A stretch of 32,000 bases of DNA from an uncultured Chloroflexia bacterium (GTDB taxonomy: Bacteria > Chloroflexota > Anaerolineae > Anaerolineales > Anaerolineaceae). The translations under genes and the position numbers were made by a program. The notes below the pieces were generated by a model. The model was not told the origin of the DNA. It did no database searches and was given only the letters and a program-made list of their open reading frames with translations. Numbering within the stretch: position 1 is the first letter of the stretch; the number at the start of each line of letters is the position of its first letter. Below, in pieces: positions 7,596 to 30,481 of the stretch. The stretch is taken from NCBI GenBank assembly GCA_963704755.1, contig OY969938.1:3660001-3692000 (forward strand). Direction: 5' to 3'.

Positions 7596-9018
7596 CTAGA
7601 TGGTTTCACCTTCGTAGACTGCGCCCGCAACCTTGCTCCAGGACTTGCGGCGCTTGTTGAGGCCAAGAAAAGCCCAAACCAGCAGAGCTACGACGACGAT
7701 CAACACAATTGCTTCGGTAAAAACGCCGCCTATGGTCGAGGGGAAAATCAAGGCGGCGGCGGAAGTAACCCAACCATCGCCCATGTTCGTGATCATCGAT
7801 GCGCCTTCCGGGATGGTGACGCCGGCCATGGGGGCGGCCAGGGTCTGAATTGGAGCCATCCAAGATGCCATGTACAATCCAACGGCTGCGCAGATCGTAC
7901 CGATGATGGTCATTCTGACCACATTACCCTTGGTAATCGGGGCAAACATACAAACGAAGAACGGGATTGCGGCCAAATCGGCAAAAGGCAGCATCCGGTT
8001 ACCAGGGAGGATGATGGACAACAAGATGGTAATGGGGACAAGCAGCAGGCTCGTGGCGATCACGGAAGGATGGCCGATCAGGATAGCAGCATCCAGGCCA
8101 ATGTGAATGTCCCTTCCGCCGGCCCGTTTGGCCATGAATTCATGGGCAGACTCGGACAGCGGAATCAAGCCTTCCATCAAGATCTGAACCATCCGAGGCA
8201 GGAGCAGCATAACTGCGGCCAGGTTGATACCGCTGGTCAGCACCGAAATGATCGCTGTGGTCCAGTTGGTATCTGCGGATGGCGGGAAATAAGCAATGGC
8301 GCCTAAGATGAGGCCAATTACAAGGCCCAAAATGAGGGGCTCACCGAATACACCCCATTTCTTCTGGATGGACTCTGGGGTCGGCTTTCCAATCGCGCAC
8401 GCCCGGGATACGGTCCAGCAGCCAGTTGAGTGGAATGGCCAGCGGTGCAAAAGATTGAGCGGAAGCCGTGGTAATGCTCACCCCCGGCATTCCAAAGAAA
8501 TCTTGTACCCCCTTCTGAGTCCAGTCTGCAATGAACAAGGCAAAAATACTGGCCACTGCAGCTGCACAAAGACCCAACACCAGGTTGTTCGTGACGACAA
8601 ACACCATCGTTCCCACAAAGGCAAAGTGCCAGAAGTTCCAGACATCGATATTCAATGTTCTGGTCAAGCCGAGGAAAAGGAATAGCAAGTTAACAATGAG
8701 AACGACTGGGATGATGAATGTGCCAACCTTTGACCCGAATGCGATCGCTGCTGCGGTAGGCCAGCCGACATCAACTGCGGTGAGTTGGACGCCGGTCTTC
8801 GTGACGATTGCTTGAGAAACGCCGCTTAGAGCTGTCCACATCAAACCAATGACCAGGTTGATGCCGACAAATGCGACCCCAATGGTGATCGCAGCTCGAA
8901 AGGCTTTCCCTGGCTTGGAACCAAGAATCAGCGCCAGGATGAAAATGACAATAGGGAGCATAACGGAAGCACCCATTGCACTGATGATAGACTGAAGCGA
9001 AGTAAAAAATGCAGCCAT
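7596..9018 (-). pseudogene. gatC: PTS galactitol-family EIIC component, interrupted by a +1 frameshift (or a sequencing error)
   Basis: Two overlapping ORFs (8341..9039 and 7596..8450, different frames) are together colinear with a GatC-type IIC of about 470 aa. Frame a reads ...LLDRIPGV then RDWKADP...stop. Frame b reads AIGKPTPESIQKKWGVFGEPLILGLVIGLILG, the conserved continuation. The junction implies one extra base in cccgggcgtgcgcg (plus 8394-8407). The likely start is ATG 9018 (MAAFFTSLQ), preceded by a purine-rich SD. Confidence 0.8.
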
Positions 9019-9131
9019 CTTTTCCTTTTCCCTTTTCAATTGTAATGCGAGATTCTTTTTGCCAATTACTTTCTACAAGCAGATTTATGAATAATGGATG
9101 TTTACCTCCTTTCGGTTTGGGCGACATTCTT

Positions 9132-11134: not shown

Positions 11135-11488
11135 AGTAATCTCCCGAAATATTTACTTGAAATTTATTTCATGTTATGAAAATTATTTCATTGGATAGGT
11201 CAATTATAGGAGGATCTACGGTTTGAAAAAAATGACATTCCTCATATTAAAGTTCGCTGTTTGTCATATTGAGGCGAATCGGGTAATTTTCGCCACATCC
11301 TGCGGCCTTGCCTCTAACCAAAACGGCACAATTGGGCCAGGGATGCCCGGTCAAATAATCTCTGACACCATGGACCTTCTCGGATCGATTGGGATCCTGC
11401 TGAGGTTCGGCCGGAAACATCTATTTGGAATGTATCCATAGGCTTGAAAAAAGAAGCAGCGTTCTTCGAATAGGTTCATCGATAATTA

Positions 11489-11929
11489 ATGGCCGATTTT
11501 ATCGGCGCGTACACCTGGGAAGAAATTTGTCGCGAATGGACCATCCGGGCAAGCAATCGTGGAATCCTGGCCCTCTATCCTGACCGTGTGGAAAGTGATT
11601 GGGGAAAAGATTACCAGGTGGATGTCGTCGGTATCAATACGATGAAAAGACACCTGATCTTAGGTGAGTGCAAATGGATCAAAGAACGTGGAAAGGCAAC
11701 TATTTTATAGGAGCTGGTTGAGAAAAAAACGCCCAAAGTTGTTCCGCCTTCCGGGAACTGGCAGGTATACTTCCTGGGGTTCTCGCGTGGTGGCTGGAAC
11801 GAAAATGCCGTTGAATATGCGCGGAATCTCTCTCAAGCGCATCCGGCGGGTATAAATTGGCAAATGCAAGGAATCCGGTTACTCACGCCGGAGGACATAG
11901 ATACAGATTTGCGTGAATGGGCAAATTGA
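11489..11929 (+). pseudogene. 5'-truncated, amber-interrupted copy of the C-terminal (DUF234-like) part of the ATPase gene at 30482..31967
   Basis: It aligns codon for codon with 31524..31967, with about 85 percent nt identity over the first 100 nt by hand count. The first 73 aa differ at 7 positions. An in-frame TAG at 11708-11710 replaces the CAG of the full copy. The frame otherwise stays open to TGA 11927-11929. Homology stops abruptly upstream of 11489. Confidence 0.8.
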
Positions 11930-12071
11930 TAATTCTGCTAATTTCTCAACCCATGCTGTAACGATAGCATTTTTGTGGAACCAACCATTTTCCTTCCCCC
12001 TGCGGGTACGATGAGGCATCGGGGAGAGGGATTTCCCCACTTGTGATCGACGGTTGGCAGACGGTACAGCT

Positions 12072-12734
12072 TCAAAGCTCGTTCTTTTTATAGATCAGCT
12101 TTGAAAATGAACTCGAAATCAGCACCAGAATTAATCCCAATCCGATAGCGGCAATCCCCCAAATCATCGTTTGATTGGGAGAGAAATATTGAAACTCCTG
12201 GCTCAGTTGATGCAGAAAATTGGTCTTCTTCACCAGATACACCAGGGACACGGCCACCAGATAAACGGGTAAATTCGAAAAGATATAAACCTTTGAAAAA
12301 GAGAAGTGAAAATAGAGCGGCAATTGGATTGAAATATACAGGCAGACGTAAAGGAAAGCAGCAGAAAAGAAGGTCAAGAATTCCAGGTAACCTATTCTGA
12401 CGTTGAGGATCTGCGAAAGGATGCTTGCAAGGATCCCAGAAAAAACCTCGTTGAACATGCCGAAAAGCAAGGCGTAGGCATATCTGCCGATCACGACTTC
12501 CGATCTTTTCAGAGGCAAGGTACCATACAGCTTGCTGAGGTTGTTCCTTTCGTAGGCCAAAAAATACACACTTATGAAAGGCGCCGCAACAACCGTAACC
12601 ACCGGTATGGTGACCACCGGCACTTTGAAAACGATAGCGATGACCGCCGCGAGCACATACACCATCATAAAGATCTTATAGTACGCCTTGAGAACAGCGT
12701 GATCCAGCTTGATCGATTTTATAATGTTAGCCAT
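12072..12734 (-). CDS. ABC-2-type integral membrane protein (putative permease partner of the adjacent ATPase)
   Basis: 220 aa with about 6 hydrophobic helices. It lies immediately downstream of the ABC ATPase in a GntR-ABC-permease arrangement typical of YtrA-type modules. Confidence 0.6.
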   Translation of the reverse strand: MANIIKSIKLDHAVLKAYYKIFMMVYVLAAVIAIVFKVPVVTIPVVTVVAAPFISVYFLAYERNNLSKLYGTLPLKRSEVVIGRYAYALLFGMFNEVFSGILASILSQILNVRIGYLEFLTFFSAAFLYVCLYISIQLPLYFHFSFSKVYIFSNLPVYLVAVSLVYLVKKTNFLHQLSQEFQYFSPNQTMIWGIAAIGLGLILVLISSSFSKLIYKKNEL

Positions 12735-12741
12735 GATTGCC

Positions 12742-13587
12742 CTATCTCTTACTGATCGCCACCAGAATTTCGTCGATCGAGGGAGGGGCGGTAACGATCT
12801 CTTCGGGTAAATATTTTTCTTCCGAGGCCGGGATAAGCCCGGAAAAGCCGGTTTTATTTTTTTTGAGGCCGATGATCTTCTCCCCGAATGGTTCCAGTAG
12901 ATCTTTTGGCCCGCCCTTGACGATCCGGTAGCTGTCGATCAGGTCATCTTTTGTCCCGGAGTAAAAAATACTCCCATCCTCGATCAGGGTGATATAGTCT
13001 GCAATTCGTTCCAGGTCGTTCGTGTCGTGGGTCGAAAGGAGAATGCTTTTCTCTTCGTCGACATAGTCGCTTAATATTTGAATAAGTTCGTCACGGGCCA
13101 CGGGATCCAGCCCGCTGGTCGGCTCATCCAGGATCAGCAGTTTCGCCTCGTGCGACAACGCCACGGCAAGCATCAGATTCAATCTCATCCCACGCGAGAG
13201 GTCTTTGACTCTCTTGTCCAAAGGCAGGCGGAATTGTTGCGCATATTGGCCGAATGCGGCGCTGTTCCAGTTAATATAGAAGGGTTTCAGGGTTTGCTCG
13301 ACTTCGCGCACGGTCCATTGATTGAAAAAAAAGATTTCATCCAGGACCACGGCAACATCCTGCTTGATTCTCTGCTCATCGCGCAGATTATCCAGGCCCA
13401 ATAATTTAACCTCGCCCCCTTCACGGCCGGTCATATTCAGCAAGAGCCGGATGGTGGTGGTTTTGCCGGCGCCGTTTTGGCCCACGAAGCCCATGATGTA
13501 GCCGGTGGGTAAAGAAAAGGATATATCCTTCAGGGTAAAATCCTTGTATTCCTTGTGAAGATTTCGGACCTCGATGGCATTATCCAT
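12742..13587 (-). CDS. ABC transporter ATP-binding protein
   Basis: Walker A is GQNGAGKTT, the signature is LSRGM, and Walker B is LLILDEPTSGLD. I place the start at MDNAIEVRNL (13587), an 8 nt overlap with the GntR stop. The longer track ORF (to 13710) would lie inside the GntR gene. Confidence 0.9.
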   Translation of the reverse strand: MDNAIEVRNLHKEYKDFTLKDISFSLPTGYIMGFVGQNGAGKTTTIRLLLNMTGREGGEVKLLGLDNLRDEQRIKQDVAVVLDEIFFFNQWTVREVEQTLKPFYINWNSAAFGQYAQQFRLPLDKRVKDLSRGMRLNLMLAVALSHEAKLLILDEPTSGLDPVARDELIQILSDYVDEEKSILLSTHDTNDLERIADYITLIEDGSIFYSGTKDDLIDSYRIVKGGPKDLLEPFGEKIIGLKKNKTGFSGLIPASEEKYLPEEIVTAPPSIDEILVAISKR

Positions 13588-13963
13588 CCCGATTTTCCCC
13601 CAGTACGAAGTCGAGAATCTTGAATAATTCGTCGCGGGATAAGTTGGCCACCCTGGCGGCGTTGGCCGCGGCTGAAAAATTATCTTCGATCTTGCGCAGG
13701 AGCTGCTCACGCACCATCTCGCTGTTTTTCGGCAAGACGAAGCAGCCCCGACCCTGTTGGATGGCGATATAGCCTTCCTGCTCTAGCTCGGCATAGGCCC
13801 GGTTCGTCGTGATGACACTGATTTTCAAATCCTTCGCAAGCTGCCTGATCGAAGGGAGCAGGTCACCCTCTTTCAATTCATCACAGAGGATCGACTCCTT
13901 GATTTGTTCCTCGATCTGTTCATAGATGGGCTCTTTTGAAGTATTTTGGATAATGATTCGCAC
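13580..13963 (-). CDS. GntR-family transcriptional regulator, YtrA subfamily
   Basis: 127 aa. The short effector domain and winged HTH (PIYEQIEEQIKESI...LPSIRQLAKDLKISVITTNRAYAELEQEGYI) fit the YtrA subfamily. The start is GTG, with agggtg SD 6 nt upstream. Confidence 0.9.
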   Translation of the reverse strand: MRIIIQNTSKEPIYEQIEEQIKESILCDELKEGDLLPSIRQLAKDLKISVITTNRAYAELEQEGYIAIQQGRGCFVLPKNSEMVREQLLRKIEDNFSAAANAARVANLSRDELFKILDFVLGENRDG

Positions 13964-14047
13964 GGTCTTTCACCCTTTAGCCTGAACAAGCGACCAGAAA
14001 AGCTGGCCGCGTTTTGTGGGCCATGCAAAAGATGGACATGGAGATTG

Positions 14048-14078
14048 CTCTGCAACGAACCAGTGGTTCGTTGCAGAG
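14048..14078. promoter_or_regulatory. perfect 14 bp-stem palindrome ctctgcaacgaacc agt ggttcgttgcagag upstream of the ytrA-like gene
   Basis: The arms at 14048-14061 and 14065-14078 are exact reverse complements. It lies 85-115 bp upstream of the GntR start and 124 bp downstream of the DUF1254 stop. No T-run follows. It is a candidate YtrA operator or a transcript-end hairpin. Confidence 0.45.
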
Positions 14079-14201
14079 ACAGGTACCGACATGGAATACA
14101 TTGTAACCCGGATAATGCCAGGGCTCCTGGCGCTGCCCACTTCTGATGCCAGGATTTCTGATGCGGCATAGGGCAAGTGTAACATTCGTATCGAATGAGT
14201 G

Positions 14202-14801
14202 CTACTGACCTGGTTTCCATTGGCTCAATGGGGTGAGCTGGATCTGCTTTGAAAGATCATAAACGGTCGCTATGTCGCTGTCGCTTGCCACGAGGGCCCT
14301 TACGATAAGCAGCACAGAGTTATTCGGAGAGGAAACCTGCTTCATTCCGCCTGGCGCCTCTCCTTTCCAACCACGCCCCGCAATGAGATAGTCGCCCGCT
14401 TGCGTCCCTGTGGTGCGCGTGCCGACGTAGGCAAAATTCGTATTGTATGACGGGTTCGTGAACTGCACGCTGTAATAGCGATCGTTCATGTCGGGTACGC
14501 GCAAGACCAGCGGCTCTTTCCTGAGGTCTAACCAACCCAAGGTCAGGAGCGTATCGTGGTTCACGCCGGCTGTCGCCGAGTTCGAGCCGGTTTGCATTGT
14601 GATGGGCTCTGCAAAGAGTTTTTGGGGCTGGGTGTAAAGCGTATTGATCGGAATGGGGCCGTCGCCGAAGCCTTTAACAAGGATCGCCCGCTTGAACACG
14701 GACAGAAGCATGCGCGGCCAAAAGTAGATCACAAGGCACCATGCGACGACCATGACCACAGCGATAATTAGCAAATGCTGGTAGTATGGCATATCGATCA
14801 C
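14202..14801 (-). CDS. DUF1254-like domain protein with an N-terminal TM anchor (copy 1)
   Basis: 199 aa. After an N-terminal hydrophobic helix it reads GDGPIPINTLY...NHDTLLTLGWLDLRKEPLVLRVPDMNDRYYSVQF...GTRTTGTQAGDYLIAGRGWKG, the DUF1254 pattern as I remember it. A 4 nt ATGA overlap links it to the upstream gene. Confidence 0.75.
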   Translation of the reverse strand: MIDMPYYQHLLIIAVVMVVAWCLVIYFWPRMLLSVFKRAILVKGFGDGPIPINTLYTQPQKLFAEPITMQTGSNSATAGVNHDTLLTLGWLDLRKEPLVLRVPDMNDRYYSVQFTNPSYNTNFAYVGTRTTGTQAGDYLIAGRGWKGEAPGGMKQVSSPNNSVLLIVRALVASDSDIATVYDLSKQIQLTPLSQWKPGQ

Positions 14802-15460
14802 TTCCTTTCGTCGACCGGCGGCACCGTGTATTTGCCCTGGAGAATTTCTTCGCCGGGGATGTACACGCGCAGCCAGAGGATGAAGTTGTCCGCAGGCGCG
14901 GGCAGCCAGTTGGACTCGTGTCCCGCCGGGGCATCCTTCTGAATGTAAATATCGACAGAATCATCGGGGTTTTGCGCAAGGCCGGAACGATCGCTGACGC
15001 TGTAGCGGTTGATCGGATTCGCCACAAAGTGATTTCTCGCGTCTCCCATCGTAATCGACCAGAATGCATGGTTCGGCGGGAGCCCTCCTGCTGGAAAGTG
15101 CATGACGTAATCATGTGCTCCGGAGAGCGCATGGCCCGCGCCATCGCTGTTCGTCCACCAATACTGCGCCTCTTCTGATGTGTTCACCGGGCCGAGAAAT
15201 AGCTGGGCGTGCGCGGCACGCAGGAACATGCCGTTGCCGGGCTCACCCAACCCGTACAGGGTGATCCAGCCGTTGACCTTTTTGGCTTTGATCCGGGCGT
15301 AGATTTGGGCCGAGACGAACGCCAGCCCGAAGCCGATGAGCGCACCCTGGATCAGGTCACTGCTCAAAGTTCTTGGACGGGGGAAGAAGATTACACGGGT
15401 GAGGAAATAGACGCATACCGCGCCAATGAGTATCGTCAGGTAATTGTATGTTTTGCTCAT
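14798..15460 (-). CDS. DUF1214-like domain protein with an N-terminal TM anchor (copy 1)
   Basis: The start is placed at MSKTYNYLTILIG (15460), which forms an ATGA overlap with the upstream membrane-protein gene. The C-terminal NWLPAPADNFILWLRVYIPGEEILQGKYTVPPV is the characteristic DUF1214 end motif. Confidence 0.75.
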   Translation of the reverse strand: MSKTYNYLTILIGAVCVYFLTRVIFFPRPRTLSSDLIQGALIGFGLAFVSAQIYARIKAKKVNGWITLYGLGEPGNGMFLRAAHAQLFLGPVNTSEEAQYWWTNSDGAGHALSGAHDYVMHFPAGGLPPNHAFWSITMGDARNHFVANPINRYSVSDRSGLAQNPDDSVDIYIQKDAPAGHESNWLPAPADNFILWLRVYIPGEEILQGKYTVPPVDERK

Positions 15461-16203
15461 ATTGAAACCTTTTCTTGAGCGGGGATTCCTTTCAGGGGCA
15501 GGAACAGGGTGATCGCAACGACGAAGCAGAGCACCTTGGAGATCGCATTCAAGGCAATCGGGATGGGTGTACCTGGATAGGCGAAACCAAATCCGGCCCA
15601 AATGGCGAACACGAAGAACATGCCGGCCAGGGAGAACAGGGTAGATCTCGACAATTTCACCAATGGCGAGAGGGTAAGCAGGGAGAAGGTTGAAATTACG
15701 ATCAGAAATAACGGCAGGAAATAGAGCCCTCTGAACGGGGTCGCAGGTAATGGCGTGTAAACCTTTCCTACGACGATCAGATCAAAGGGGAGCTCGAATA
15801 TCCATGGTGCGGCCATCGTACCCAGGATGGCGTTGCCCAGCGCAATTTTCCAGCCGTACCGTCTGCAGATGACGAGGAGGATAATGAAGGTCACGACCAC
15901 CGCAGTGAACGTAACCGGCGCGATCCGGTCGGGGGGCAGAACGAACTTTCCCACTTGCCCGCTCGCCCTCTGTAGTTGGAATACGAGCCCATAAATGCGA
16001 GTCGCGTTAGCCGCTGTCACAATCGAGAGGATCCACAGCGCAAACAAGAAAAAGGTGACCGTCTTTCCAGGCCGGGCGGCTGTTAGCGGACGGCGCATGC
16101 GGGTGCCCACAATAATGAGCGCACCCGCGATGATCACCAGGATGATGGCCAGGACAACCGCTCCGCTGCCCGTATAGGGGCTCCAACTGCTATTGTAGAT
16201 CAT
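15457..16203 (-). CDS. polytopic integral membrane protein, unknown family (248 aa)
   Basis: It has about 6-7 hydrophobic segments. It is translationally coupled to the downstream DUF1214 gene. A TATAAT (plus 16248-16253) lies about 45 bp upstream. Confidence 0.6.
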   Translation of the reverse strand: MIYNSSWSPYTGSGAVVLAIILVIIAGALIIVGTRMRRPLTAARPGKTVTFFLFALWILSIVTAANATRIYGLVFQLQRASGQVGKFVLPPDRIAPVTFTAVVVTFIILLVICRRYGWKIALGNAILGTMAAPWIFELPFDLIVVGKVYTPLPATPFRGLYFLPLFLIVISTFSLLTLSPLVKLSRSTLFSLAGMFFVFAIWAGFGFAYPGTPIPIALNAISKVLCFVVAITLFLPLKGIPAQEKVSI

Positions 16204-16365
16204 AGTCTATGCTCCGGTGTGCTGCATGGATTGGATGCGATATTCGCATTATACTGGTCGGAAATGACATAAATACTCATTTAGAGTCTCTTTTTTTCAG
16301 GAACTTAAGCAATCTTAATCCCTTGGTCATTGAATGGAATGGCACAACCGCAGGGCAGTCGAATG

Positions 16366-16992
16366 CTACTGCCCGGGTGTCCATTGGGTCAACGGTGTGA
16401 GCTGGATTTGATTTGCAAGGGCATAGGCTGCCGGCGCGTCACTGTCGCTCTCGACAAGTGTGCGCCCGATCACGAGAACGGCATTGCCCGGCGAGGATAT
16501 CTGCGTGACTCCCGCCGGTACCGTTCCTTGCCATCCCGGACCGGTGATGAGGTAATCGCCAGCGTTTGTACCGGTGGCGCGTGTGCCGACTTCCGAGAAC
16601 ACGATACCCCTCGTTGGACTACAAAACTCAACGCTGTAATAACGCCCCGTTATATCCGGTACATGTAAAATTAAAGGTCCTTTGGAGAGATCGAGCCAGC
16701 CAACGGTGTAGAGCGTGTCGTGGTTCGCGCCGGTGGTCAGAAGATTGGACCCCGAAGCGGCATAGGGTGAAATGAAATTTTTGGCGGTCACTGTATAGAG
16801 CGTGTTGATGGGGATCGGCCCGTCTCCGAGGCCATTCTTGGTTATTCCCGTATAATACAAGCCGTACATCGAGATCGGGAAGACATAGAGGTAGAGGGGA
16901 ACAACGATAACCCACGCCACGAACATGGCCAGGCCGAAGGTGCGCAGGTAGTGTGTCTTTTTGGGTGCGTTCTTTTCCATAGAAGACCTCAT
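16366..16992 (-). CDS. DUF1254-like domain protein with an N-terminal TM anchor (copy 2)
   Basis: It is a paralog of 14202..14801: GDGPIPINTLY, NHDTLYTVGWLDLSKGPLILHVPDITGRYYSVEF, GTRATGTNAGDYLITGPGWQG, and an identical IQLTPL.QW.PGQ C-terminus. Confidence 0.75.
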   Translation of the reverse strand: MRSSMEKNAPKKTHYLRTFGLAMFVAWVIVVPLYLYVFPISMYGLYYTGITKNGLGDGPIPINTLYTVTAKNFISPYAASGSNLLTTGANHDTLYTVGWLDLSKGPLILHVPDITGRYYSVEFCSPTRGIVFSEVGTRATGTNAGDYLITGPGWQGTVPAGVTQISSPGNAVLVIGRTLVESDSDAPAAYALANQIQLTPLTQWTPGQ

Positions 16993-17591
16993 TTCGTCAG
17001 AGTGACAGGCGGCACCTGATATGTGCTGTTTAGAATTGCCGTGCCGGGTAAATAGACGCGCAGCCAGAGCTTGAAGTTGCCGGCCGGCGCCGGCAGCCAG
17101 TTTTGCTCATGACCGGCCGGGGCGGTGTTTTGGAGATAGATATCCACTGAGCCGTCATCGTTTTGGACGAGGCCAGACGCGCCGCCGACGTTGTAGCGGT
17201 TGATAGGATTGTTCACGAATTTTTGTTGAGCGTCGGACATGGTGAGCGACCAGGTGGCGTCATTCGGCGGGAGTCCTCCGGCCGGGAAGTGCAGGATGTA
17301 GTCGTGCTGGCCGTTGAGTGTCTGGCCGGTGCTATCCACGGTCGTCGTCCAATACACTTCCTCTTGCGGCAAATTGACTGCAGGTAGAACACTGGCGCAA
17401 GCGTCTTGAATAAGGATGCCGTTGCCCGAGACTCCGCACTTCAGGGTAGTATTCCATCCGTTGACGGTCGTTTGGATGGCCTTGAACTCAATAATATTGA
17501 AACGCGTAACCATGACCAATGCCAGCACTACCCCAACGATAATTCCCAGGATCACCAAAAGGATGCTTATGATCGTTCTTTTCCAGTTCAT
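16989..17591 (-). CDS. DUF1214-like domain protein with an N-terminal TM anchor (copy 2)
   Basis: It is a paralog of 14798..15460: HDYILHFPAGGLPPN, NPINRYNV, SVDIYLQNTAPAGHEQNWLPAPAGNFKLWLRVYLPG. A 4 nt overlap links it to the downstream DUF1254 gene. Confidence 0.75.
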   Translation of the reverse strand: MNWKRTIISILLVILGIIVGVVLALVMVTRFNIIEFKAIQTTVNGWNTTLKCGVSGNGILIQDACASVLPAVNLPQEEVYWTTTVDSTGQTLNGQHDYILHFPAGGLPPNDATWSLTMSDAQQKFVNNPINRYNVGGASGLVQNDDGSVDIYLQNTAPAGHEQNWLPAPAGNFKLWLRVYLPGTAILNSTYQVPPVTLTK

Positions 17592-17621
17592 GAAGGCGTA
17601 CCTCTTTAATTTAATGGAGCC

Positions 17622-18362
17622 CTATTTCCATTTTGTAAGGATTTCTTCTCGTCTGAACGTCGTCTTGACCAGGTAGAAGACGATGATGTCGATGATGGCC
17701 AAGGCGGCAGCTATGATCAACATAGTGCCCGTGGTCAGCGTCATCACCTTGATTTCAGACAGCAGGTACAGAGCACCTAAAGGTAAAAGGATCAGTGCGC
17801 CGAACTGTTGGGCCGAGCGGACGTCGTTTACTTTTGAAGAGACAATGATGTTATAGCCAACGCTGAGGATGCAGGCCAGCGGAGCCAGCAGGAACAGGAT
17901 AATGGCAAAATTCGAATTGGGGAAATAATAGTAATTTAGAGTGCTGTGAGTGAACAGGTCCATCAGAACGGTAAAGATCAGTGCGCCGATATAGGTAGCG
18001 GCCATGGCCGGCAAGAAGGCGGCAATGCTCTTTCCGGCCAGAATTTCCGCGTCAGTCGTCGGCGTGGCCAGCAGGGGTTCCAAGCTTTTTTGAACTTTTT
18101 CGCCCACCAGGCTGTAAGCGGCGATCCCCAGGGGCGCTAAGCTGGCGCCGATGACGTACAGGAATGAGAAGGCATCCAGCAGGGTCGGAAGGATGGATGC
18201 GGCGGGTACCTTGGTGTTTCTGCTGGCGACGAACCGCATAAGGAACGGGAGGCCGATCGAGACGATCAACTCGAAATAGATGATCGTATAGAGGATGCTC
18301 TTCCTTTTCGTAAAAGTTTTAAAATCCTTGGATGCGACAATCCACGCTTTTGATAGTCTCAT
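17622..18362 (-). CDS. ABC-2 family transporter permease
   Basis: 246 aa with about 6 TM segments. A 4 nt overlap links it to the upstream ABC ATPase gene. Confidence 0.75.
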   Translation of the reverse strand: MRLSKAWIVASKDFKTFTKRKSILYTIIYFELIVSIGLPFLMRFVASRNTKVPAASILPTLLDAFSFLYVIGASLAPLGIAAYSLVGEKVQKSLEPLLATPTTDAEILAGKSIAAFLPAMAATYIGALIFTVLMDLFTHSTLNYYYFPNSNFAIILFLLAPLACILSVGYNIIVSSKVNDVRSAQQFGALILLPLGALYLLSEIKVMTLTTGTMLIIAAALAIIDIIVFYLVKTTFRREEILTKWK

Positions 18363-19288
18363 TTTGTTTCCTGAATAACCTTGAGATAAGTCTCTTCCAA
18401 ACTGGGGTTGAGCTGGGTAATGTACTGGATGCGGCCGCCTGCTGAAACGATCTGCTGCACCACCTCGGGGTTTTTCTTCATCGGATCAGCAAGCATCAGG
18501 GTGATTTTATTGTCTTCAAGCTCAATCCCCTTGGGATTGAGCTTGCGGACCGCCTCAAGAATTTGCTCGTTGACCTGCTCTAGCTGGAATACCGTCTTAC
18601 TGGTGCCCCAGGTGGTCGTCTCCAACTGCTCCGGCGTGTTGACCGCCAGCAGTTTGGTCTTCAAAATCCCGATGCGGTCGCAGAGGCGCTGGGCTTCGTC
18701 CAGGTTGTGAGTATTGATGAAAATCGTCTTGCCGTCTTTCTTGAGCTTCAGGAGAATATCCCGCACCACCCTGGCCGCTTCCGGGTCCAGGTTGGCCGTC
18801 GGCTCGTCGAGGAAAAGCAGCTCGGGATCGTGGATCAGCGCCCTGGCGATTGCGATCTTCTGTTTCATGCCTTTAGAATATTCGCTGATATCCTGGTTCC
18901 GCTTGTCCCACAGATCCATCATAGTCAGGTAGTACTCGATGCGCTCTTTCCTTTGCGCCTCGGGACATTCGTAGAGTTTTCCGTAGTAGTCGAGGTTCTC
19001 ATAGGCGGTCAGCTCCTCGTATAGGCCGACATCGCCGGTCACCAGGCCGATCATTTTACGGATAGCCAACGAATCGGCTGCGCCGCCGATGGAGTATTCC
19101 CCGATTTGGGCGTCGCCGTTGCTCTTAGAGATCAGGCAGCAGAGCATTCGGATGGTGGTCGTCTTGCCGGCGCCATTCGGCCCGAGTAAGCCGAACACCT
19201 CGCCTTGCGCCACGTGAAAGGTCAGCCCATCGACCGCGGTTACCTCTCCAAACTTCTTCGTCAGGTTCTTGACTTCGATCATGTTCAT
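18359..19288 (-). CDS. ABC transporter ATP-binding protein (ABC-2 / DrrA-like exporter type)
   Basis: Walker A is GPNGAGKTT, the signature is YSKGMKQK, Walker B is LLFLDEPTANLD, and the H-loop is INTHNL. Confidence 0.9.
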   Translation of the reverse strand: MNMIEVKNLTKKFGEVTAVDGLTFHVAQGEVFGLLGPNGAGKTTTIRMLCCLISKSNGDAQIGEYSIGGAADSLAIRKMIGLVTGDVGLYEELTAYENLDYYGKLYECPEAQRKERIEYYLTMMDLWDKRNQDISEYSKGMKQKIAIARALIHDPELLFLDEPTANLDPEAARVVRDILLKLKKDGKTIFINTHNLDEAQRLCDRIGILKTKLLAVNTPEQLETTTWGTSKTVFQLEQVNEQILEAVRKLNPKGIELEDNKITLMLADPMKKNPEVVQQIVSAGGRIQYITQLNPSLEETYLKVIQETK

Positions 19289-19494
19289 GGGCGTTTGTTA
19301 ATCCCTTTAAAGCCCAGCGCGGACCAGATGGTTATACCGATGAGGATAACGACCGCAACAATCCAGAGGATGAAGGGGGTCATCGGGAACACCCCGGCCT
19401 TCGAACTGATTTTGGTGAAAACGACAATACCAATGATAACGACTGCAATGGTCAATCCCAGGGGGATTCTTATGGATAATCTCATCAGTTTCAT
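19285..19494 (-). CDS. small two-helix membrane protein (69 aa), first gene of the ABC operon
   Basis: It has two clear hydrophobic helices. A 4 nt overlap links it to the ABC ATPase start. An aaaggaaacc SD-like sequence lies upstream. Confidence 0.5.
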   Translation of the reverse strand: MKLMRLSIRIPLGLTIAVVIIGIVVFTKISSKAGVFPMTPFILWIVAVVILIGITIWSALGFKGINKRP

Positions 19495-19668
19495 TTTGGT
19501 TTCCTTTTATTCGAGAGACGAAACCGGTAAATTTAGATTCGTCTCGAAGCCCCTGTATTCGCCATGGTCTGTGCAGGGTATGGCCTTCACCAGCACGAAT
19601 GGACATTTAATAAACTGACAAAATCGCGCCAGTGGTTATACTGTTTATACTCTATATGCAATATAGTA

Positions 19669-19697
19669 TCACCTCTTTCTGGTTTGTAAAGAGGTGA
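19669..19697. repeat. perfect 10 bp-stem hairpin tcacctcttt (9 nt loop) aaagaggtga in the region upstream of the ABC operon
   Basis: The arms at 19669-19678 and 19688-19697 are exact reverse complements. It is adjacent to an AT-rich imperfect dyad (tatactctatatgcaatatagtat) and to a possible TTGCAT-15-TATAAC promoter on the minus strand. Confidence 0.5.
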
Positions 19698-19860
19698 ATT
19701 GCTGCAAGTCCCGCGCAGCCCATTCCAGGCGCGCTCCGTCAGTTTATGATCTTGCCTGAGATCGATCTATCTTTGATATGCCGGTAAAAGAGGCTGCCGG
19801 TGCGATTGGGAAATCCACCGGAGGGGGATTGCGGGGCATATAAAATTGGCATAGGCTTAT

Positions 19861-19888
19861 CAAAAAACCGTAGCCCCTGTGCCTACGG
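19861..19888 (-). terminator. intrinsic terminator (minus strand; possibly bidirectional)
   Basis: The hairpin ccgtag-cccctgtgc-ctacgg (19868-19888) is followed on the minus strand by a run of six T (plus aaaaaa, 19862-19867). On the plus strand ttctcttt follows. Confidence 0.7.
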
Positions 19889-19896
19889 TTCTCTTT

Positions 19897-19930
19897 AGTA
19901 GCGGGGGTCGGATGCGAACCAACAACCTCC
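19897..19930 (-). pseudogene. tRNA 3'-half remnant (T-arm plus acceptor 3' strand), no 5' half
   Basis: The minus strand reads GTTGG-TTCGCAT-CCGAC-CCCCGCT-A, which is a T-stem, a TTCG-type loop, a T-stem, a 7 nt acceptor strand and a discriminator. No complementary 5' acceptor strand or D-arm lies upstream. Confidence 0.6.
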
Positions 19931-20017
19931 ACCCGGCAATTTTCACCTTCAATTATTGCCTGCGCCGCGCGTGTACCTGGAGGTGGGACACCCTATCCGT
20001 TCCCGGTGTTTCTAATT

Positions 20018-21355
20018 TTACATCGCAGGGCTTTTGGGGAGAGGAATGACGATGTTCAAAGTAAACAATCCCCCATCCGCCATGACACTCATTTCGCCAT
20101 GGTATTTCTGGATTGCCATCTCGATACTTTGTAATCCATAGCCATGGTTCTGGCTGTCTGTTTTTGTGCTGAGGAACTTGAGCTGCTTTTTGATCAGACT
20201 ATGCGTGAAACGGTTCTCGAACCGTGCCATCAGCATGTCGTTCACCCGGCCTGTGCGCACCTCGATCCAGCGCAGTGAGGGTTCGTCGTTGCGATCACTA
20301 TTCTCGATAGCGTTGTCCAGGGCATTTCCAAAGATGGTCGCGATATCGACGTCTTGGATCATAGACCAGTGCTTACCATCTGCAACGATGTGCATCTCAA
20401 TGTCCTTGTCTTCCGCCTCGTGCATCTTTTCCGACAAGATAATGTCCAATGTCTTGTTTCCCGTATTACAGATCAACTCATAGTCTTTGATCTCGTTATC
20501 GATGGTCTTGACATAAGTCTTGATCTCAGCCAATGAATTGATGGATACGATCCCGCGCAGGATATGGCGGAGGTCGTGATATTTACGGTTGACCGTTTCG
20601 ATAGTATTGAGTGTGCTCAGATATTGAAGGTGCTGCCTGCGGACCGAATTTTCCACTTTTAGCAGCTCGTTCTGCCTGATGCTATAGCTGAGGTGCTCGC
20701 TCATGATCATATTGGTCAACGCAAAAACGCCAAAAAGGAAGTCGAGATAATGGATCATCAACGGGACGGTGAAAGGGTCGATCCTGAATATGAACGCGTA
20801 GTCGCGCAAAAAGAAATAGGGACCCGCGGGCAGCATAATAATGAGCGCCAGGTTTACATTTGTGATCCCATTGATTTGGAAACGAATGAACTTCTTGATC
20901 GAAACTGTTACACCGATTTTCATGACCAGCAGAACGATGTGTGCGATCACCCTCTCTAAAAAAGTTCCTTTGTCGATGAAGTCAAAATGAAAAAACGACG
21001 ACATCAACGAGATTAACAGGACCAGACAAATGTCGTTCGCCAGGACGGCCAGGATGGTGAGATAAATCCGTGCGCCCAGGGGTGAGTTGCTGCATTTTGC
21101 CGAGAACACCAGCAGCAATAGGAAATGGATCGCATAAAAAATGAGGAAGTTGGCCTGCTCAACGGTCCTTCCATTGAAGACGAGTTGCGAAGAAACCATG
21201 ATCAGAAAAATGGCTGCGAACCATATCCCCCAGGATCGATTCTTACGTACTTGCTTACGGCTCCCGTTGCACAGATAGAGTAGCAGCAGCATGTCAGATA
21301 ACGACATGAATATAGGAGCAAAACCGGTTTCGATGATCTGAGAGAGGCCGTTCAT
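20018..21355 (-). CDS. AgrC-like (HPK10/GHKL) membrane sensor histidine kinase
   Basis: 445 aa. It has about 6-7 N-terminal TM helices, the H-box KYHDLRHILRGI, the N-box FGNALDNAIEN and the G-box HGYGLQSIEMAIQKYHG. A 4 nt overlap links it to the LytTR regulator gene. Confidence 0.85.
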   Translation of the reverse strand: MNGLSQIIETGFAPIFMSLSDMLLLLYLCNGSRKQVRKNRSWGIWFAAIFLIMVSSQLVFNGRTVEQANFLIFYAIHFLLLLVFSAKCSNSPLGARIYLTILAVLANDICLVLLISLMSSFFHFDFIDKGTFLERVIAHIVLLVMKIGVTVSIKKFIRFQINGITNVNLALIIMLPAGPYFFLRDYAFIFRIDPFTVPLMIHYLDFLFGVFALTNMIMSEHLSYSIRQNELLKVENSVRRQHLQYLSTLNTIETVNRKYHDLRHILRGIVSINSLAEIKTYVKTIDNEIKDYELICNTGNKTLDIILSEKMHEAEDKDIEMHIVADGKHWSMIQDVDIATIFGNALDNAIENSDRNDEPSLRWIEVRTGRVNDMLMARFENRFTHSLIKKQLKFLSTKTDSQNHGYGLQSIEMAIQKYHGEMSVMADGGLFTLNIVIPLPKSPAM

Positions 21356-22053
21356 AATTGCCCGCCGATCAAATCTGTTAGACTGCTGATGAGGTCTTTT
21401 CGTCTGTGTTTGCTGATGGGGACCTTCATCCCTGCGATGATGCAGTATTGCCCTTGTAAAGACTCTACTGCGTATAGATTAATCAAAAAAGCGCTATGGC
21501 AGCGAAAAAATGTCTTGGGTAAATGCTCCTCCAGGTATTGCAGCGTCTTTGCGCAGGCAACCTGGCCGTTTTTCGTTTCAATAAATAGTTTACGGTTTTT
21601 GACTTCAATAAAATAAATGTCGGAAAGGTTGAGGACAAAATAACCCTCATTATTATGCACGGTTAAAAATTCACGATCGGCATTGCCAAGCCTGCGGAAG
21701 GCGCGGGCCATGACGCGCTCAAGCATTTGGGAAGATACCGGTTTAATTAAATAATCCAGCGCCTCAACTGAATACCCCATCAATGAATGTTGTGGATTGT
21801 TGGTGATAAAGATGATTTCCACCCGGTCGTTGGACTCGCGGATCTTCTTCGCGACTTCAATGCCATTCAGCCCCGCCATCTGGATATCCAGGAAGATGAT
21901 GTCGAAGTTCGACGGCCAATTGGCCAGGATATCTTCTCCGCTGCTGTACGAGAGGATCTCCAGTTTAATATTCGGAAGAAGGGACCATTCCCTTAGCTTT
22001 TCTTCCAAGGCCTTACTGTCGATTGAATTATCTTCAACGATAGCAATTTTCAT
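21352..22053 (-). CDS. LytR/AlgR (LytTR) family response regulator
   Basis: The receiver domain shows MKIAIVEDN and IIFLDIQMAGLNG. The C-terminal LytTR domain shows IYFIEVKNRKLFIET...FFRCHSAFLINL. Confidence 0.9.
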   Translation of the reverse strand: MKIAIVEDNSIDSKALEEKLREWSLLPNIKLEILSYSSGEDILANWPSNFDIIFLDIQMAGLNGIEVAKKIRESNDRVEIIFITNNPQHSLMGYSVEALDYLIKPVSSQMLERVMARAFRRLGNADREFLTVHNNEGYFVLNLSDIYFIEVKNRKLFIETKNGQVACAKTLQYLEEHLPKTFFRCHSAFLINLYAVESLQGQYCIIAGMKVPISKHRRKDLISSLTDLIGGQL

Positions 22054-22841
22054 TGTTTACCTGCTTGAGGCCTAATTTTAGAGGGGGCTTTTTGATGCAA
22101 GCCATTTTAACATATTTACCCCGCTAATTGGGCGTTCGGCATGTCTAACGGGGTCACTGCCCAGAACAATGTTGCTTACAATTTGAGTAGAATTTAGGTA
22201 TCGTGTAACCCCCCAAAAGATTGCCTATCGAAAACAAAAATCTCTCTGCGCGAGTTAATCCGGCGGCATTCGCTTCCGGCCAGTCTGGCGCTGACGACCG
22301 GCAGTGCTATCTGCAAGCACCGAAAAGAGAAATTTCTTTTGTGGAGGATTATGGCGCCGATTTATACAGTCGAAAAAGGAAAAGCATTTATAACAAAAAA
22401 CCTACTCCCGAGACGAATACAGCCAATCCGCACAGAATTTTTATCCAGGCCTGGTCAAAATTGGAATACTTAAAAAAACGGGTGCAACTGACCAATATTT
22501 AGTCACACAATTTGATCTTCCAATATAGTAAAGAATTGAAGGGATTGGGCCCTGGAATCCTGGTGATCAATCATTTTTAATACTGCACGCTGCCATTGGG
22601 TTGATGGCCTCCGTGCAGATAAAGGAGGTAAAGCTCAGTTCTGTCTCGTGGAGAACCTGCGACGGATACAACACATAAACCCGTTCATTCAAAATCGATA
22701 ATTCGTTTCGAAGGGTATTTGAGCCAATTCAAGTCCAGGTTGAAGCGCTTTGTTGGGTGACAAAGGTGTCTTTTTTTCACTCTGATCATAGATCGAGTCG
22801 ATGTTGTTAGTAAAAATAAAAAGTAAAGAGGAGAGGTAACC

Positions 22842-25085
22842 ATGGATTTGTCGGAAGATTTAAAAAGAATAAGTCGAAGATACTTCTTGAAAGGGACCGC
22901 ACTTACCCTTGCCGCAGGTGGAATGCTCACGGCCTGTAAGCCGAAAATAGCGGCCACCGATGCAGTTGTTGAACCCGCTGCCGGTTCACAAACGTCTGCA
23001 GTTGCAACCGAACTGATCCCGCAGGCCTATCTCAATCCGCAGAATTACGACTACCGTCAAAATACTACCGACTTCAAAACGCTGTTTTCGCCTCTGAAGA
23101 TCGGCCCGCTCAACCTCAACCATCGCATGGTCAAATCCGCAGCCGGATCGGCCACTTATCTCGCTGGGCTTACCGATGAGCTGCTCCAATACTACGTTAA
23201 CTTCGCCAAGGGCGGCGTTGAGCTTATTTGGGTAGAAATGGTTGAAGAGCTGGAGCCGCCGGCCGACGGCAGTGAAACACCTGCCAAAACCATTGCCTTT
23301 GCTCAGAAACTCGTTGAGGAGTGTGGAAAATACGGCGCAAAGTTAGGCTATCAGCACTATGGCTTTTCAATGAAGTCATCGAACGACTTTACGCACGAGG
23401 ACATTGCTGCGGAACAAGCCCGCTGGGTGGCCATTGCTCAGTTCTTGCAGAAAACCGGCTTTGTTGGGATTGAGCTCAACGCCGCAGGTTTTAACCTCGG
23501 TGAGCAATTCCTTTCGCGTTTCCACAACACCCGTACGGATGAATACGGCACAGGCAGCCTGGAAAACCGCGCCCGTTTTGTGACCGAATTAATAGACCAG
23601 ATCAAAGCAGCCTGCGGTAAGGACTTTGTAGTACAAGTTTTGATCGACTGCATAGAAGAAAACGACAACCTTACCAATGGCGCCTCCTTGGCGACATTAG
23701 ACAACGCTGTTACTACTCCGTTTAGTAAAGTAACGACGATCGAAGAAGGAATTGGGTTTGCCAAGTTGTTCGAAGCTGCCGGATGCGATTCGATGCATCT
23801 GCGCTTAGGTCCGCTAGACAACCACCCGTGTCAATTTGGCAGCGACCTTTACTTTCTCTTGAACGGTATTGAGGGTGCAAGCGGATACGGAACCCAATGG
23901 GATTTCTCGAGGCATTGGCAAGGCCAGCTGATCGGCAACCACAGCGGCGCCGGTATGCTGCTCGACATTGTCGCGCGCTACAAAGCAGCGCTCAGCATTC
24001 CTTGCGGCACCGTCACCTATATGGATCCAGCCCATGCCCCAGATTACTTCGAGCAGGCGCTCGCCGATGGCAAAGTCGACTTCTTTCTCATGAACCGCCC
24101 GTTAAATGTTGACACCGAATACGTCACTAAACTTAAAGCGGGACGTATCGACGAAATCGCCCCCTGCACGCGCTGCTTCCACTGCCACATCGGCGGAAAC
24201 GAGCAGAACCGCCAGATGGGTTATTGCCGCGTGAACGCCTTGACACAGCGGGTCATGACCGAAAATGGACCGGCGACCTATGAGCTTGAACCGGCTACCG
24301 TGTCGAAGAAAGTCATGGTGATCGGCGGCGGTCCTGCCGGTATGGAAGCCGCCCGCATCGCAGCCGCCCGCGGTCACAAAGTCACACTCTATGAAAAGAG
24401 TGGTGCGCTCGGTGGCAAGCTCGCCTTTGCTAGCATGGTCAAAGGACCTCACGAAAACCTCGACGACTTTAAGGCTTATCTGGCCAGGCAACTGGAGGTG
24501 AACGGCGTGACCGTCACCTTGGGTAAAGAAGTCGACGCCGCGCTGATCAACAGTGAATCCCCAGATGCGGTAATCCTCGCAGTCGGTGCTCTGCCGGGCA
24601 AGGTGGACGCAAGTGGCGGCAACGTGCCGGTTATCGACTTTACCAACTTTATGGCTGACGGAACTGGCGACAAAGTCGTTGTCTTTGGCTCAAACGCCCA
24701 GGCTTTCGACTGCGCTCTGTGGCTGACGGTGCATAAGAAGAAGGTCACCATTGTAACGCCGAACCCCATAGAGGATCTCGACAAGCAGCAGTCTCAGCAC
24801 GCTCAACGTTTTATGACGACCTCACTCTATTCACTTGGATTAAAAGTTTATCCAAGCGCTACCATCAAGGAGATTGGCGACGGCAAGGTTACCGTAGCAT
24901 CTGACGGCGGATGGGAGACCGTCATCGCCGCAGACTCCATCATCAACGCCGCCGACCTGGTGCCGAACAAGTCCCTGCTTGACGGCATTTCGGTCAAAGA
25001 GACCTATGCAATTGGTGACTGCGATCAGCCCTTTAACATGGCTTTGGCTATCCGTGCCGGCAACGATATCGGCCGTCAAATCTAG
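22842..25085 (+). CDS. Tat-exported lipoprotein, OYE / 2-enoate reductase / 2,4-dienoyl-CoA reductase-like flavoprotein (FMN TIM barrel + 4Fe-4S + FAD domain)
   Basis: A strong SD (aagaggagagg) precedes it. The twin-arginine motif is SRRYFLKG, followed by the lipobox LTAC. The OYE-like barrel shows ENRARFVTELI. The Cys cluster is CTRCFHCHIGGNEQNRQMGYC. The dinucleotide fold is VMVIGGGPAGMEAARIAAARGHKVTLYEK. Confidence 0.85.
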   Translation: MDLSEDLKRISRRYFLKGTALTLAAGGMLTACKPKIAATDAVVEPAAGSQTSAVATELIPQAYLNPQNYDYRQNTTDFKTLFSPLKIGPLNLNHRMVKSAAGSATYLAGLTDELLQYYVNFAKGGVELIWVEMVEELEPPADGSETPAKTIAFAQKLVEECGKYGAKLGYQHYGFSMKSSNDFTHEDIAAEQARWVAIAQFLQKTGFVGIELNAAGFNLGEQFLSRFHNTRTDEYGTGSLENRARFVTELIDQIKAACGKDFVVQVLIDCIEENDNLTNGASLATLDNAVTTPFSKVTTIEEGIGFAKLFEAAGCDSMHLRLGPLDNHPCQFGSDLYFLLNGIEGASGYGTQWDFSRHWQGQLIGNHSGAGMLLDIVARYKAALSIPCGTVTYMDPAHAPDYFEQALADGKVDFFLMNRPLNVDTEYVTKLKAGRIDEIAPCTRCFHCHIGGNEQNRQMGYCRVNALTQRVMTENGPATYELEPATVSKKVMVIGGGPAGMEAARIAAARGHKVTLYEKSGALGGKLAFASMVKGPHENLDDFKAYLARQLEVNGVTVTLGKEVDAALINSESPDAVILAVGALPGKVDASGGNVPVIDFTNFMADGTGDKVVVFGSNAQAFDCALWLTVHKKKVTIVTPNPIEDLDKQQSQHAQRFMTTSLYSLGLKVYPSATIKEIGDGKVTVASDGGWETVIAADSIINAADLVPNKSLLDGISVKETYAIGDCDQPFNMALAIRAGNDIGRQI

Positions 25086-30424: not shown

Positions 30425-30477
30425 ACCACTCGCATTGTAATTTCTGTTATAATAATTAAAATTACAATGCGAGTGGT
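30425..30477. repeat. perfect 19 bp inverted repeat (accactcgcattgtaattt / aaattacaatgcgagtggt, 15 nt AT-rich spacer) 4 nt upstream of the ATPase start
   Basis: The arms at 30425-30443 and 30459-30477 are exact reverse complements. The track ORF starting at 30419 merely reads through it. Confidence 0.85.
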
Positions 30478-30481
30478 AGTC

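Follow-up and report, generated by a model that had tools for sequence, protein, structure and literature searches.

The stretch of DNA analysed here, called the window below, is 32,000 nucleotides (nt) long and comes from an uncultured Chloroflexia bacterium of the family Anaerolineaceae (GenBank assembly GCA_963704755.1, contig OY969938.1, positions 3,660,001 to 3,692,000 of the forward strand). A minus-strand gene array at 19494-14202 of the window carries two pairs of genes for proteins with the domains of unknown function DUF1214 and DUF1254, together with genes of an ATP-binding cassette (ABC) exporter of the ABC-2 type. We lean to the view that the two pairs, as old paralogs, are copies of a self-contained and mobile two-gene cassette, which would be a split, permuted and membrane-anchored form of the module known from fused proteins such as VPA0735, and that the exporter is an optional companion.

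The gene array and its junctions

Eight open reading frames (ORFs) make up the array on the minus strand. A first-pass annotation, made by a model from the sequence and an ORF list, had given their coordinates and order, and all of them were found there. In the direction of transcription, the parts are as follows.

19285-19494, minus strand: small protein of 69 amino acids (aa) with two transmembrane (TM)-like segments, the first gene in the array; no Pfam or NCBIfam match
18359-19288, minus strand: ABC ATPase, 309 aa, DrrA-like; PF00005 (ABC_tran), E 7.5e-30
17622-18362, minus strand: ABC-2-like permease, 246 aa, six hydrophobic segments; PF12679 (ABC2_membrane_2) at 24.8 bits, under the 27.2-bit cut-off
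16989-17591, minus strand: DUF1214_A, 200 aa, CC subtype; PF06742, E 1.3e-34, 119.5 bits
16366-16992, minus strand: DUF1254_A, 208 aa (204 aa if the start is 16980); PF06863, E 2.3e-37, 128.6 bits
16204-16365, no strand: intergenic gap of 162 nt from pair A to the 6-TM gene, from reading of the sequence
15457-16203, minus strand: protein of 248 aa with six hydrophobic segments (the 6-TM protein); no Pfam or NCBIfam match
14798-15460, minus strand: DUF1214_B, 220 aa, LH subtype; PF06742, E 4.3e-33, 114.6 bits
14202-14801, minus strand: DUF1254_B, 199 aa, mainstream subtype; PF06863, E 8.5e-37, 126.8 bits

Two of the starts need a comment. The mechanical ORF of DUF1214_B (14798-15601) is too long; the ATG at 15460, not the upstream TTG, is taken as its start and gives 220 aa, matching the length of the homologues. 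The public gene call for DUF1254_A (protein P0001) has 204 aa, which places the start at 16980 instead of 16992. Overlaps of 4 nt had been described for almost every junction, and reading of the DNA confirmed them at five of the seven: ATGA overlaps join the small protein to the ATPase, the ATPase to the permease, DUF1214_A to DUF1254_A, and the 6-TM protein to DUF1214_B, and a GTGA overlap joins DUF1214_B to DUF1254_B. Between the permease gene and DUF1214_A there is a 30-nt spacer with AAAGAGG. Judging from the overlaps, the DUF1214 and DUF1254 genes are probably translationally coupled. A scan of 11800-22300 found no terminator-like site inside the 162-nt gap; promoter and terminator counts in this region equal those of shuffled controls, the gap yielded nothing of note, and the single promoter-like match (16392-16363) is at chance level. 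An Rfam scan of the whole window gave zero matches.

Relation of the split proteins to fused DUF1254-DUF1214 proteins

All four DUF proteins score above the Pfam gathering thresholds (25 bits for PF06742, 22.2 bits for PF06863), with 114.6-128.6 bits. In the solved fused protein VPA0106, residues 77-193 align with DUF1254_A and residues 311-434 with DUF1214_A; in VPA0735, DUF1214_A aligns to residues 362-481. The first-pass annotation had stated that fused proteins carry DUF1254 before DUF1214; this order is correct in VPA0106 and in seven fused representatives (456-481 aa), and the order of the separate genes in the window, DUF1214 then DUF1254, is indeed inverted relative to it. When residues were mapped on the seven representatives, split DUF1254 residues 26-205 corresponded to fused residues ~43-214 and split DUF1214 residues 36-197 to fused residues ~300-465; fused residues ~215-300 had no counterpart in either split protein. 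By this mapping, the split pair equals a fused protein minus a central helical insert of ~85 residues, with the two halves given hydrophobic N-termini of their own and their genes reversed. Simple fission of a fused gene cannot yield such an arrangement.

Comparison of folds points to the same family. A predicted model of DUF1254_A matched 3u07 in a Foldseek search (E 1.6e-10, probability 1.00), and that of DUF1214_A matched 2p3y and 3u07 (E 1e-10 to 3e-8, with 1.2e-10 for 2p3y; probability 1.00). The query-normalised TM-scores to the solved structures are 0.5-0.6, from models of moderate confidence. Significant matches in both sequence and fold are restricted to VPA0106 (PDB 3U07), VPA0735 (PDB 2P3Y/3VB9) and the Burkholderia cenocepacia protein 6ANS, all three of which are uncharacterised; beyond the DUF1254/DUF1214 family, the fold search gave weak beta-sandwiches such as carbohydrate-binding modules and adhesins, with E 0.01 or worse. 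The split pair shares with the VPA0735-like proteins both Pfam domains, the motifs NxDTLY, VPDxxGRYY, FWSLTMY-like, NPxNRY, DGSxDIY and NWLPxP, and, likely, an extracytoplasmic site. It differs from them in consisting of two polypeptides with the DUF1214 gene first, in lacking the central ~85-residue insert, and in having N-terminal TM anchors instead of cleavable signals. One natural fusion, P0249 (453 aa), has the two domains in the split order and carries a third TM helix. Some other fused proteins (P0241, P0254, P0272 and P0306; 913-962 aa) are doubled and have two DUF1254 stretches. At another locus (L013, 9320-10591), a 423-aa ORF joins DUF1214 and DUF1254, which is either a real fusion or the result of a long-read indel.

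A compact and widely spread clade

The first-pass annotation had regarded the split arrangement as unusual. It is not: as a query, DUF1254_A found 4964 proteins at E <= 1e-5, the best 120 of which are all 190-214 aa long and carry PF06863 alone, and DUF1214_A found 3955, the best 120 being 187-250 aa with PF06742 alone. There are thus thousands of single-domain homologues of ~200 aa, and where source names are given, they are already called 'DUF1254/DUF1214 domain-containing protein' by NCBI. A scan of species-representative genomes, one per species, found 503 cassette loci. The best 80 belong mostly to Chloroflexota (Anaerolineae and relatives); other carriers among them are Desulfosporosinus, Syntrophomonadaceae, Acidobacteriota, Planctomycetota, Proteobacteria, Bacteroidota, Spirochaetota, Cryosericum and Hydrogenedentota, and also three archaea, namely methanogens of the Methanoregulaceae/Methanomicrobiales. 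Two carriers are cultured, Longilinea arvoryzae KOME-1 and Desulfosporosinus sp. BG. In these 80 genomes, the DUF1214 stop lies at the DUF1254 start for 83 of 92 DUF1254 genes.

How large is the split clade within its family? In a library clustered at 50% identity, the DUF1254/DUF1214 family comprises 3816 clusters, about 34 of which score better than 1e-30 and form the split clade; the remainder are mostly fused proteins of 450-500 aa. The clade is compact, with identities of at least 55% despite the many phyla, Firmicutes among them. On these sequence comparisons, the split form is a compact, sequence-rich and widely transferred clade inside a large fused family.

A variant layout occurs in archaea (L020, 9416-11241, from a metagenome-assembled genome of Methanoregulaceae; L031; L074). 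There, DUF1254 comes after a degraded DUF1214 fragment and before a full DUF1214 of 222 aa, which overlaps the DUF1254 stop by 4 nt, so that the order equals the fused domain order. In L020 and L031 this unit stands directly after an ABC ATPase and a permease.

Two pairs, two old subtypes

Pairs A and B had been called clear paralogs on the basis of shared peptides. These peptides are present, and the proteins of the two pairs are 54% (DUF1214) and 53% (DUF1254) identical. The DUF1214 proteins fall into a CC group of 42 sequences, which keep Cys52 and Cys65 and to which pair A of the window belongs, and an LH group of 39 sequences of ~220 aa, to which pair B belongs. CC-type DUF1214 proteins are ~197-205 aa long in tandem arrays, and many single-copy CC genes encode ~220 aa; an extra N-terminal hydrophobic segment is conserved in all the ~220-aa forms of DUF1214, some of the CC type included. 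A tandem of a CC pair followed by an LH pair is found at about 14 of 55 loci.

Each pair has its closer relatives elsewhere. Pair B is mainstream: DUF1254_B shares 68-80% identity with most of the 80 loci, the archaeal ones included, and the second-pair genes of many loci reach 81-87% identity with DUF1214_B. Pair A is divergent, being 84-86% identical to a single locus, L001 (85-86% for DUF1254_A), and at most 71% to all the others (at most 65% for DUF1254). In L001, pair A directly follows the permease gene, and the B pair and the 6-TM gene are absent. With only 53-54% identity between the pairs and closer relatives of both in other genomes, a recent or local tandem duplication is ruled out. 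Therefore, the two tandem copies described in the first-pass annotation did not arise by duplication in place; rather, two old subtypes recur together in this and other genomes.

Probable membrane anchors and pairing of the two halves

A hydrophobicity scan of the array proteins found one N-terminal segment each in DUF1214_A (10-28), DUF1254_A (19-37) and DUF1254_B. DUF1214_B has a scored segment at 8-26, and a second conserved helix at ~36-54 can be recognised from the alignment, so that LH-type DUF1214 proteins probably have two TM helices. Are these segments retained anchors, as the first-pass annotation had it, or ordinary signal peptides that are cleaved to release soluble secreted products, possibly still as a heterodimer? 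The fused relatives would suggest the latter, since they start with Sec-type, twin-arginine or lipoprotein signals; these export signals also imply that the family works outside the cytoplasm. The split proteins look different. Their hydrophobic stretches are 19-23 residues long and are not followed by an Ala-x-Ala-type site, and predicted models show long continuous N-terminal helices (2-36 and 12-53). Over 95 sequences, Gly16, Gly20 and Ala24 of the DUF1214 helix are conserved in a small-xxx-small arrangement, a common helix-packing pattern, as are a His, a Trp and a Tyr-x-Trp-Pro end in the DUF1254 helix. Part of this helix end corresponds to the first helix of the mature domain in fused proteins, so that a cut at this place would cost the fold one of its pieces. 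In the natural fusion P0249, both helices are retained and a third one is present as well (hydrophobic peaks at 11-29, 218-236 and 268-286), and its third segment, together with the Arg-rich loop between the last two, gives a topology with both domains outside. Cleaved signal peptides are therefore improbable. We favour retained anchors, which would leave both globular domains on the outer face of the cytoplasmic membrane.

Do the two proteins act together? A DUF1214-DUF1254 heterodimer would be the most economical reading of a near-obligate, overlapping pair. If the two proteins instead worked independently, alone or as homo-oligomers, their adjacency would merely come from joint inheritance or transfer; it is true that the single-chain models fold reasonably alone in the Pfam-domain regions, and that archaeal loci show the variant order beside a degraded upstream DUF1214. 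Against this stand the 90% adjacency with DUF1214 stop at DUF1254 start across many phyla and unrelated contexts, the fusion of both domains in one chain in thousands of relatives and in the three solved proteins, and the existence of the split-order fusion P0249. Moreover, DUF1214 residues 28-76 are poorly modelled when the chain is folded alone, as expected if they pack on the partner. We thus hold independent action to be very improbable. Still less can be said for the idea that the split is an artefact, that is, a frameshifted or mis-assembled fused gene. The window does contain two other genes that are each broken into two overlapping ORFs (a PTS EIIC gene and an ATPase_2/DUF234 gene, see below). 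However, the order of the halves is reversed relative to the fused proteins, both halves come with a start codon and a TM helix of their own, and the same arrangement is seen in hundreds of independent assemblies, those of the cultured L. arvoryzae KOME-1 and Desulfosporosinus sp. BG included. Gene order and conservation rule out a frameshifted fused gene, and the chance of an artefact is practically negligible.

The ABC-2 exporter and its linkage to the cassette

The ATPase scores 274.4 bits against TIGR01188 (drrA), under the 312-bit cut-off, and 156.8 against 309.75 bits with the lantibiotic-protection model TIGR03740. The permease also matches PF12730 below threshold (19.9 against 27 bits). 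Scanning metagenomes with an alignment of permeases yielded 79 loci that have an ATPase-permease pair, and the permease gene directly follows the ATPase gene in all 79, which, with the six hydrophobic segments, fits an ABC-2 permease. Homologues of the 69-aa protein lie upstream of the ABC genes in L001, L011, L017, L035 and L085; a second small ORF upstream of the 69-aa gene, present in L001, is absent from the window. The commonest companion of the exporter is a protein of ~66 aa with two TM segments (15 loci), and in the neighbour search around the exporter this small 2-TM protein alone recurs. The trio of ABC ATPase, ABC-2 permease and small 2-TM protein is widespread in its own right, with more than 527 loci in peat, wetland and sediment metagenomes (L085-L164) and permease identities of 45-87%.

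According to the first-pass annotation, the DUF pairs and the exporter form one machine, in which a surface heterodimer makes or captures a substrate for the pump; this would resemble immunity or remodelling systems that combine an exporter with a surface protein. Several observations speak for this. The window genes are tightly packed, with stops and starts that overlap. Cassettes in L001, L011, L017 and L035 are flanked by the same ABC genes in a shuffled order, and those in the archaeal loci L020 and L031, and also in L094, L119 and L162, by more distant versions. By our estimate, ~0.2-0.3 loci would be expected by chance in each direction, while 5 and 3 were observed. A YtrA-like module of a GntR regulator and a second ABC transporter (GntR-ABC module) lies in the surroundings. 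Finally, for a Listeria monocytogenes gene, lmo1241, annotated as 'DUF1254 domain-containing protein', induction by the bacteriocin garvicin KS (PMC12791056) and dependence on SigB (PMC7690807) are documented. Both hint at an envelope-stress role for the family; lmo1241 is annotated with DUF1254 alone and may not belong to the split clade.

A survey of neighbourhoods tells against a conserved machine. Among 55 loci with at least 3 kb of flank on both sides, the exporter (ATPase and permease homologues) is near 5 cassettes, the 6-TM protein near 3 and the GntR-ABC module near 4, and no further neighbour family occurs in more than 6; clustering of all flanking ORFs found nothing common to more than 14 of 81 loci, the top clusters being ABC genes and antisense shadow ORFs. 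The exporter is thus lacking at 50 of 55 well-flanked cassettes. Conversely, DUF genes are near the exporter in 3 of the 79 metagenome loci (L094, L119, L162) and lacking in the other 76, including L085, where an 87%-identical permease is followed by 6 kb of sequence without DUF genes. L168 has both pairs, the 6-TM gene and a GntR gene and no ABC genes. The exporter's commonest partner is the small 2-TM protein and not a DUF protein, and the permease stays below its Pfam cut-off and the ATPase below those of the drrA and lantibiotic-protection subfamilies. One obligate machine is not supported, and as a whole the one-machine model seems doubtful to us. What survives of the proposed coupling is that linkage to ABC-2 genes recurs above chance in a few loci; it is not conserved, and the split form itself is common. 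The exporter may cooperate optionally with the cassette.

The 6-TM protein, flanking modules and regulation

The 248-aa 6-TM protein has 885 homologues, and 0 of them carry a Pfam domain. Its gene is found beside ABC genes (L166, L079), beside DUF pairs without ABC genes (L168), and beside neither (L165, L167); elsewhere it is solitary, accompanies another ABC/ABC-2 pair, or has GntR, Band_7 and SdpI genes as neighbours. The layout of L168, with pair, 6-TM gene, pair and GntR gene, is the same as in the window. From such varied combinations of ABC genes, 6-TM gene, pairs and GntR gene, it follows that the modules combine freely. On the two sides of the array, Pfam matches identified the following genes.

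21352-22053, minus strand: LytTR response regulator, upstream of the array
20018-21355, minus strand: GHKL sensor kinase, upstream of the array
13580-13963, minus strand: GntR regulator
12742-13587, minus strand: second ABC ATPase
12072-12734, minus strand: ABC-2 permease of family PF13346

The GntR-ABC module follows the pairs also in L001, L011, L035 and L066, and a GntR gene does so in L084 and L168. The LytTR two-component system has no homologue beside the cassette in 81 other loci, and a role as regulator of the array is therefore not supported. In L. arvoryzae KOME-1 and Desulfosporosinus sp. BG, the neighbours identified by Pfam are unrelated: an ECF sigma factor, an FMN reductase, a transposase, and AAT/APH family proteins.

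Possible function and known systems

As the first-pass annotation had stated, the two domains have no established function; no experimental one was found in the literature searched. For a Malassezia homologue, a speculative model proposes a glycosyl hydrolase (PMC4634964). Among the residues that are invariant in the two halves, Trp, Tyr, Asp, Glu, Asn and Arg are frequent; this is compatible with a pocket that binds or hydrolyses a polar or amphiphilic ligand and suggests a glycan or an amphiphilic small molecule. A role specific to peptidoglycan is unlikely, because the cassette is also present in methanogens. The PADLOC models of anti-phage defence systems returned generic ATPase matches alone; the permease, the 6-TM protein, the small protein and the DUF proteins had none.

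Two known arrangements of ABC-2-type pumps can be compared with the array. LanFEG are ABC-2-type immunity pumps that work with a LanI lipoprotein or a LanH membrane protein. Like such systems, the array has an ABC ATPase and a small polytopic permease beside anchored extracellular proteins and an accessory polytopic protein, and a LytTR two-component system and a GntR-ABC module are nearby in the window. Unlike them, it has one permease gene and no LanI-like protein, its ATPase reaches only 156.8 of the 309.75 bits, no bacteriocin-related family came up when the window's remaining large ORFs were scanned with Pfam, the two-component system is not conserved by the cassette, and the exporter linkage is occasional. 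In NosDFY-type complexes, a periplasmic partner docks on the ABC-2 permease. Our permease has its best, sub-threshold Pfam match in ABC2_membrane_2, a family that presumably includes NosY; it also lacks a large external domain, and separate external proteins are encoded alongside. Differences are the absence of a NosD-like beta-helix protein and of nos genes, and again the lack of conserved linkage.

Other genes in the window

Several other genes in the window show signs of disruption. A PTS (phosphotransferase system) EIIC-GAT permease gene at 7596-9039 (minus strand) is divided into two overlapping ORFs, 8341-9039 matching profile positions 2-196 and 7596-8450 matching positions 207-393, which makes it a frameshifted pseudogene or the product of a sequencing indel. 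An ATPase_2 plus DUF234 gene on the plus strand is likewise in two overlapping ORFs (30419-30829 and 30651-31967), and a 73-aa DUF234 fragment stands alone at 11489-11710 (plus strand), in the 11135-12071 spacer beside the GntR-ABC module. The broken ATPase_2/DUF234 genes suggest gene decay or rearrangement at the edge of an island. A 210-aa ORF at 25267-25899 (plus strand) matches only positions 132-275 of the 370 of the profile for the secretion ATPase T2SSE and is probably a truncated gene. At 22842-25085 (plus strand), a flavoprotein of 747 aa with Oxidored_FMN and Pyr_redox_2 domains is similar to 2,4-dienoyl-CoA reductases; its N-terminus, RRYFLKGTALTLAAGG, resembles a twin-arginine export signal, which is unusual for this type of enzyme. 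Lastly, a gene for a sigma factor of the extracytoplasmic function (ECF) type at 28985-29563 (minus strand) overlaps the start of one for a 721-aa protein at 26833-28998, which has no Pfam match and may be an anti-sigma factor or a membrane partner.

Proposed reading: a self-contained cassette with optional partners

Taken together, we consider it fairly probable that the array holds two old paralogous copies of a cassette that is self-contained and horizontally mobile, pair A being of the CC and pair B of the LH subtype, and exporter linkage being optional. In this cassette, the DUF1214 half would represent about the last 160 residues of a fused protein and the DUF1254 half fused residues ~43-214. 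The N-terminal TM helices would hold both globular domains on the outer face of the membrane, and the halves would associate via their ectodomains, and probably via the TM helices too, to rebuild the two-domain beta-sandwich module of the relatives that are secreted, TAT-exported or lipoproteins, which would then bind or process an extracytoplasmic ligand. The ABC ATPase, ABC-2 permease and small 2-TM protein, the 6-TM protein, and the GntR-ABC module would be separate floating modules that gathered around the cassette in this Anaerolineae-type lineage; they may cooperate with it, for example in an envelope-stress or detoxification island, and would not be required for its function.

Some points weigh against this account. 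The flank of the DUF1254_B helix is richer in Lys and Arg on its C-terminal than on its N-terminal side, unlike what a simple positive-inside rule would give, and the topology as a whole has been read from hydrophobicity, homology and one natural fusion. Support for the heterodimer is indirect, the two models being single-chain ones of moderate confidence (pLDDT 68 and 78), and the idea of a glycan ligand goes back to residue types and the speculative Malassezia prediction (PMC4634964). Furthermore, permeases linked to cassettes are 77-88% identical in the Anaerolineae-type loci and ~51% in Methanoregulaceae, so that ABC linkage exists in at least two permease clades and may reflect some functional synergy. 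A more ambitious picture is conceivable, in which a mobile, anchored, heterodimeric ecto-enzyme or ligand trap of bacteria and methanogenic archaea, the recurrently co-located ABC-2 pump and the unclassified 6-TM protein would constitute a new kind of modular protection of the envelope against an environmental compound of anoxic peat and sediment, CC and LH pairs differing in specificity. We think this picture unlikely, and prefer the self-contained cassette with optional partners.

What would the split cassette mean for its family? DUF1254/DUF1214 proteins form ~3800 clusters at 50% identity, with three solved proteins and no known function. The split variant is, in the literature searched, so far undescribed. 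It is already abundant in databases. It settles no long-standing question, and its value lies in being a lead for de-orphaning the DUF family. The split clade can be regarded as a natural fragment-complementation experiment, which speaks for joint action of the two domains and shows that they can do without the central helical insert; it would also mean that the proteins act on the outer side of the cytoplasmic membrane. That the clade has spread, at identities of at least 55%, over many bacterial phyla and as far as methanogens suggests a function in anoxic soils and sediments that is selectable and does not depend on the host, and the two cultured carriers make experiments possible.

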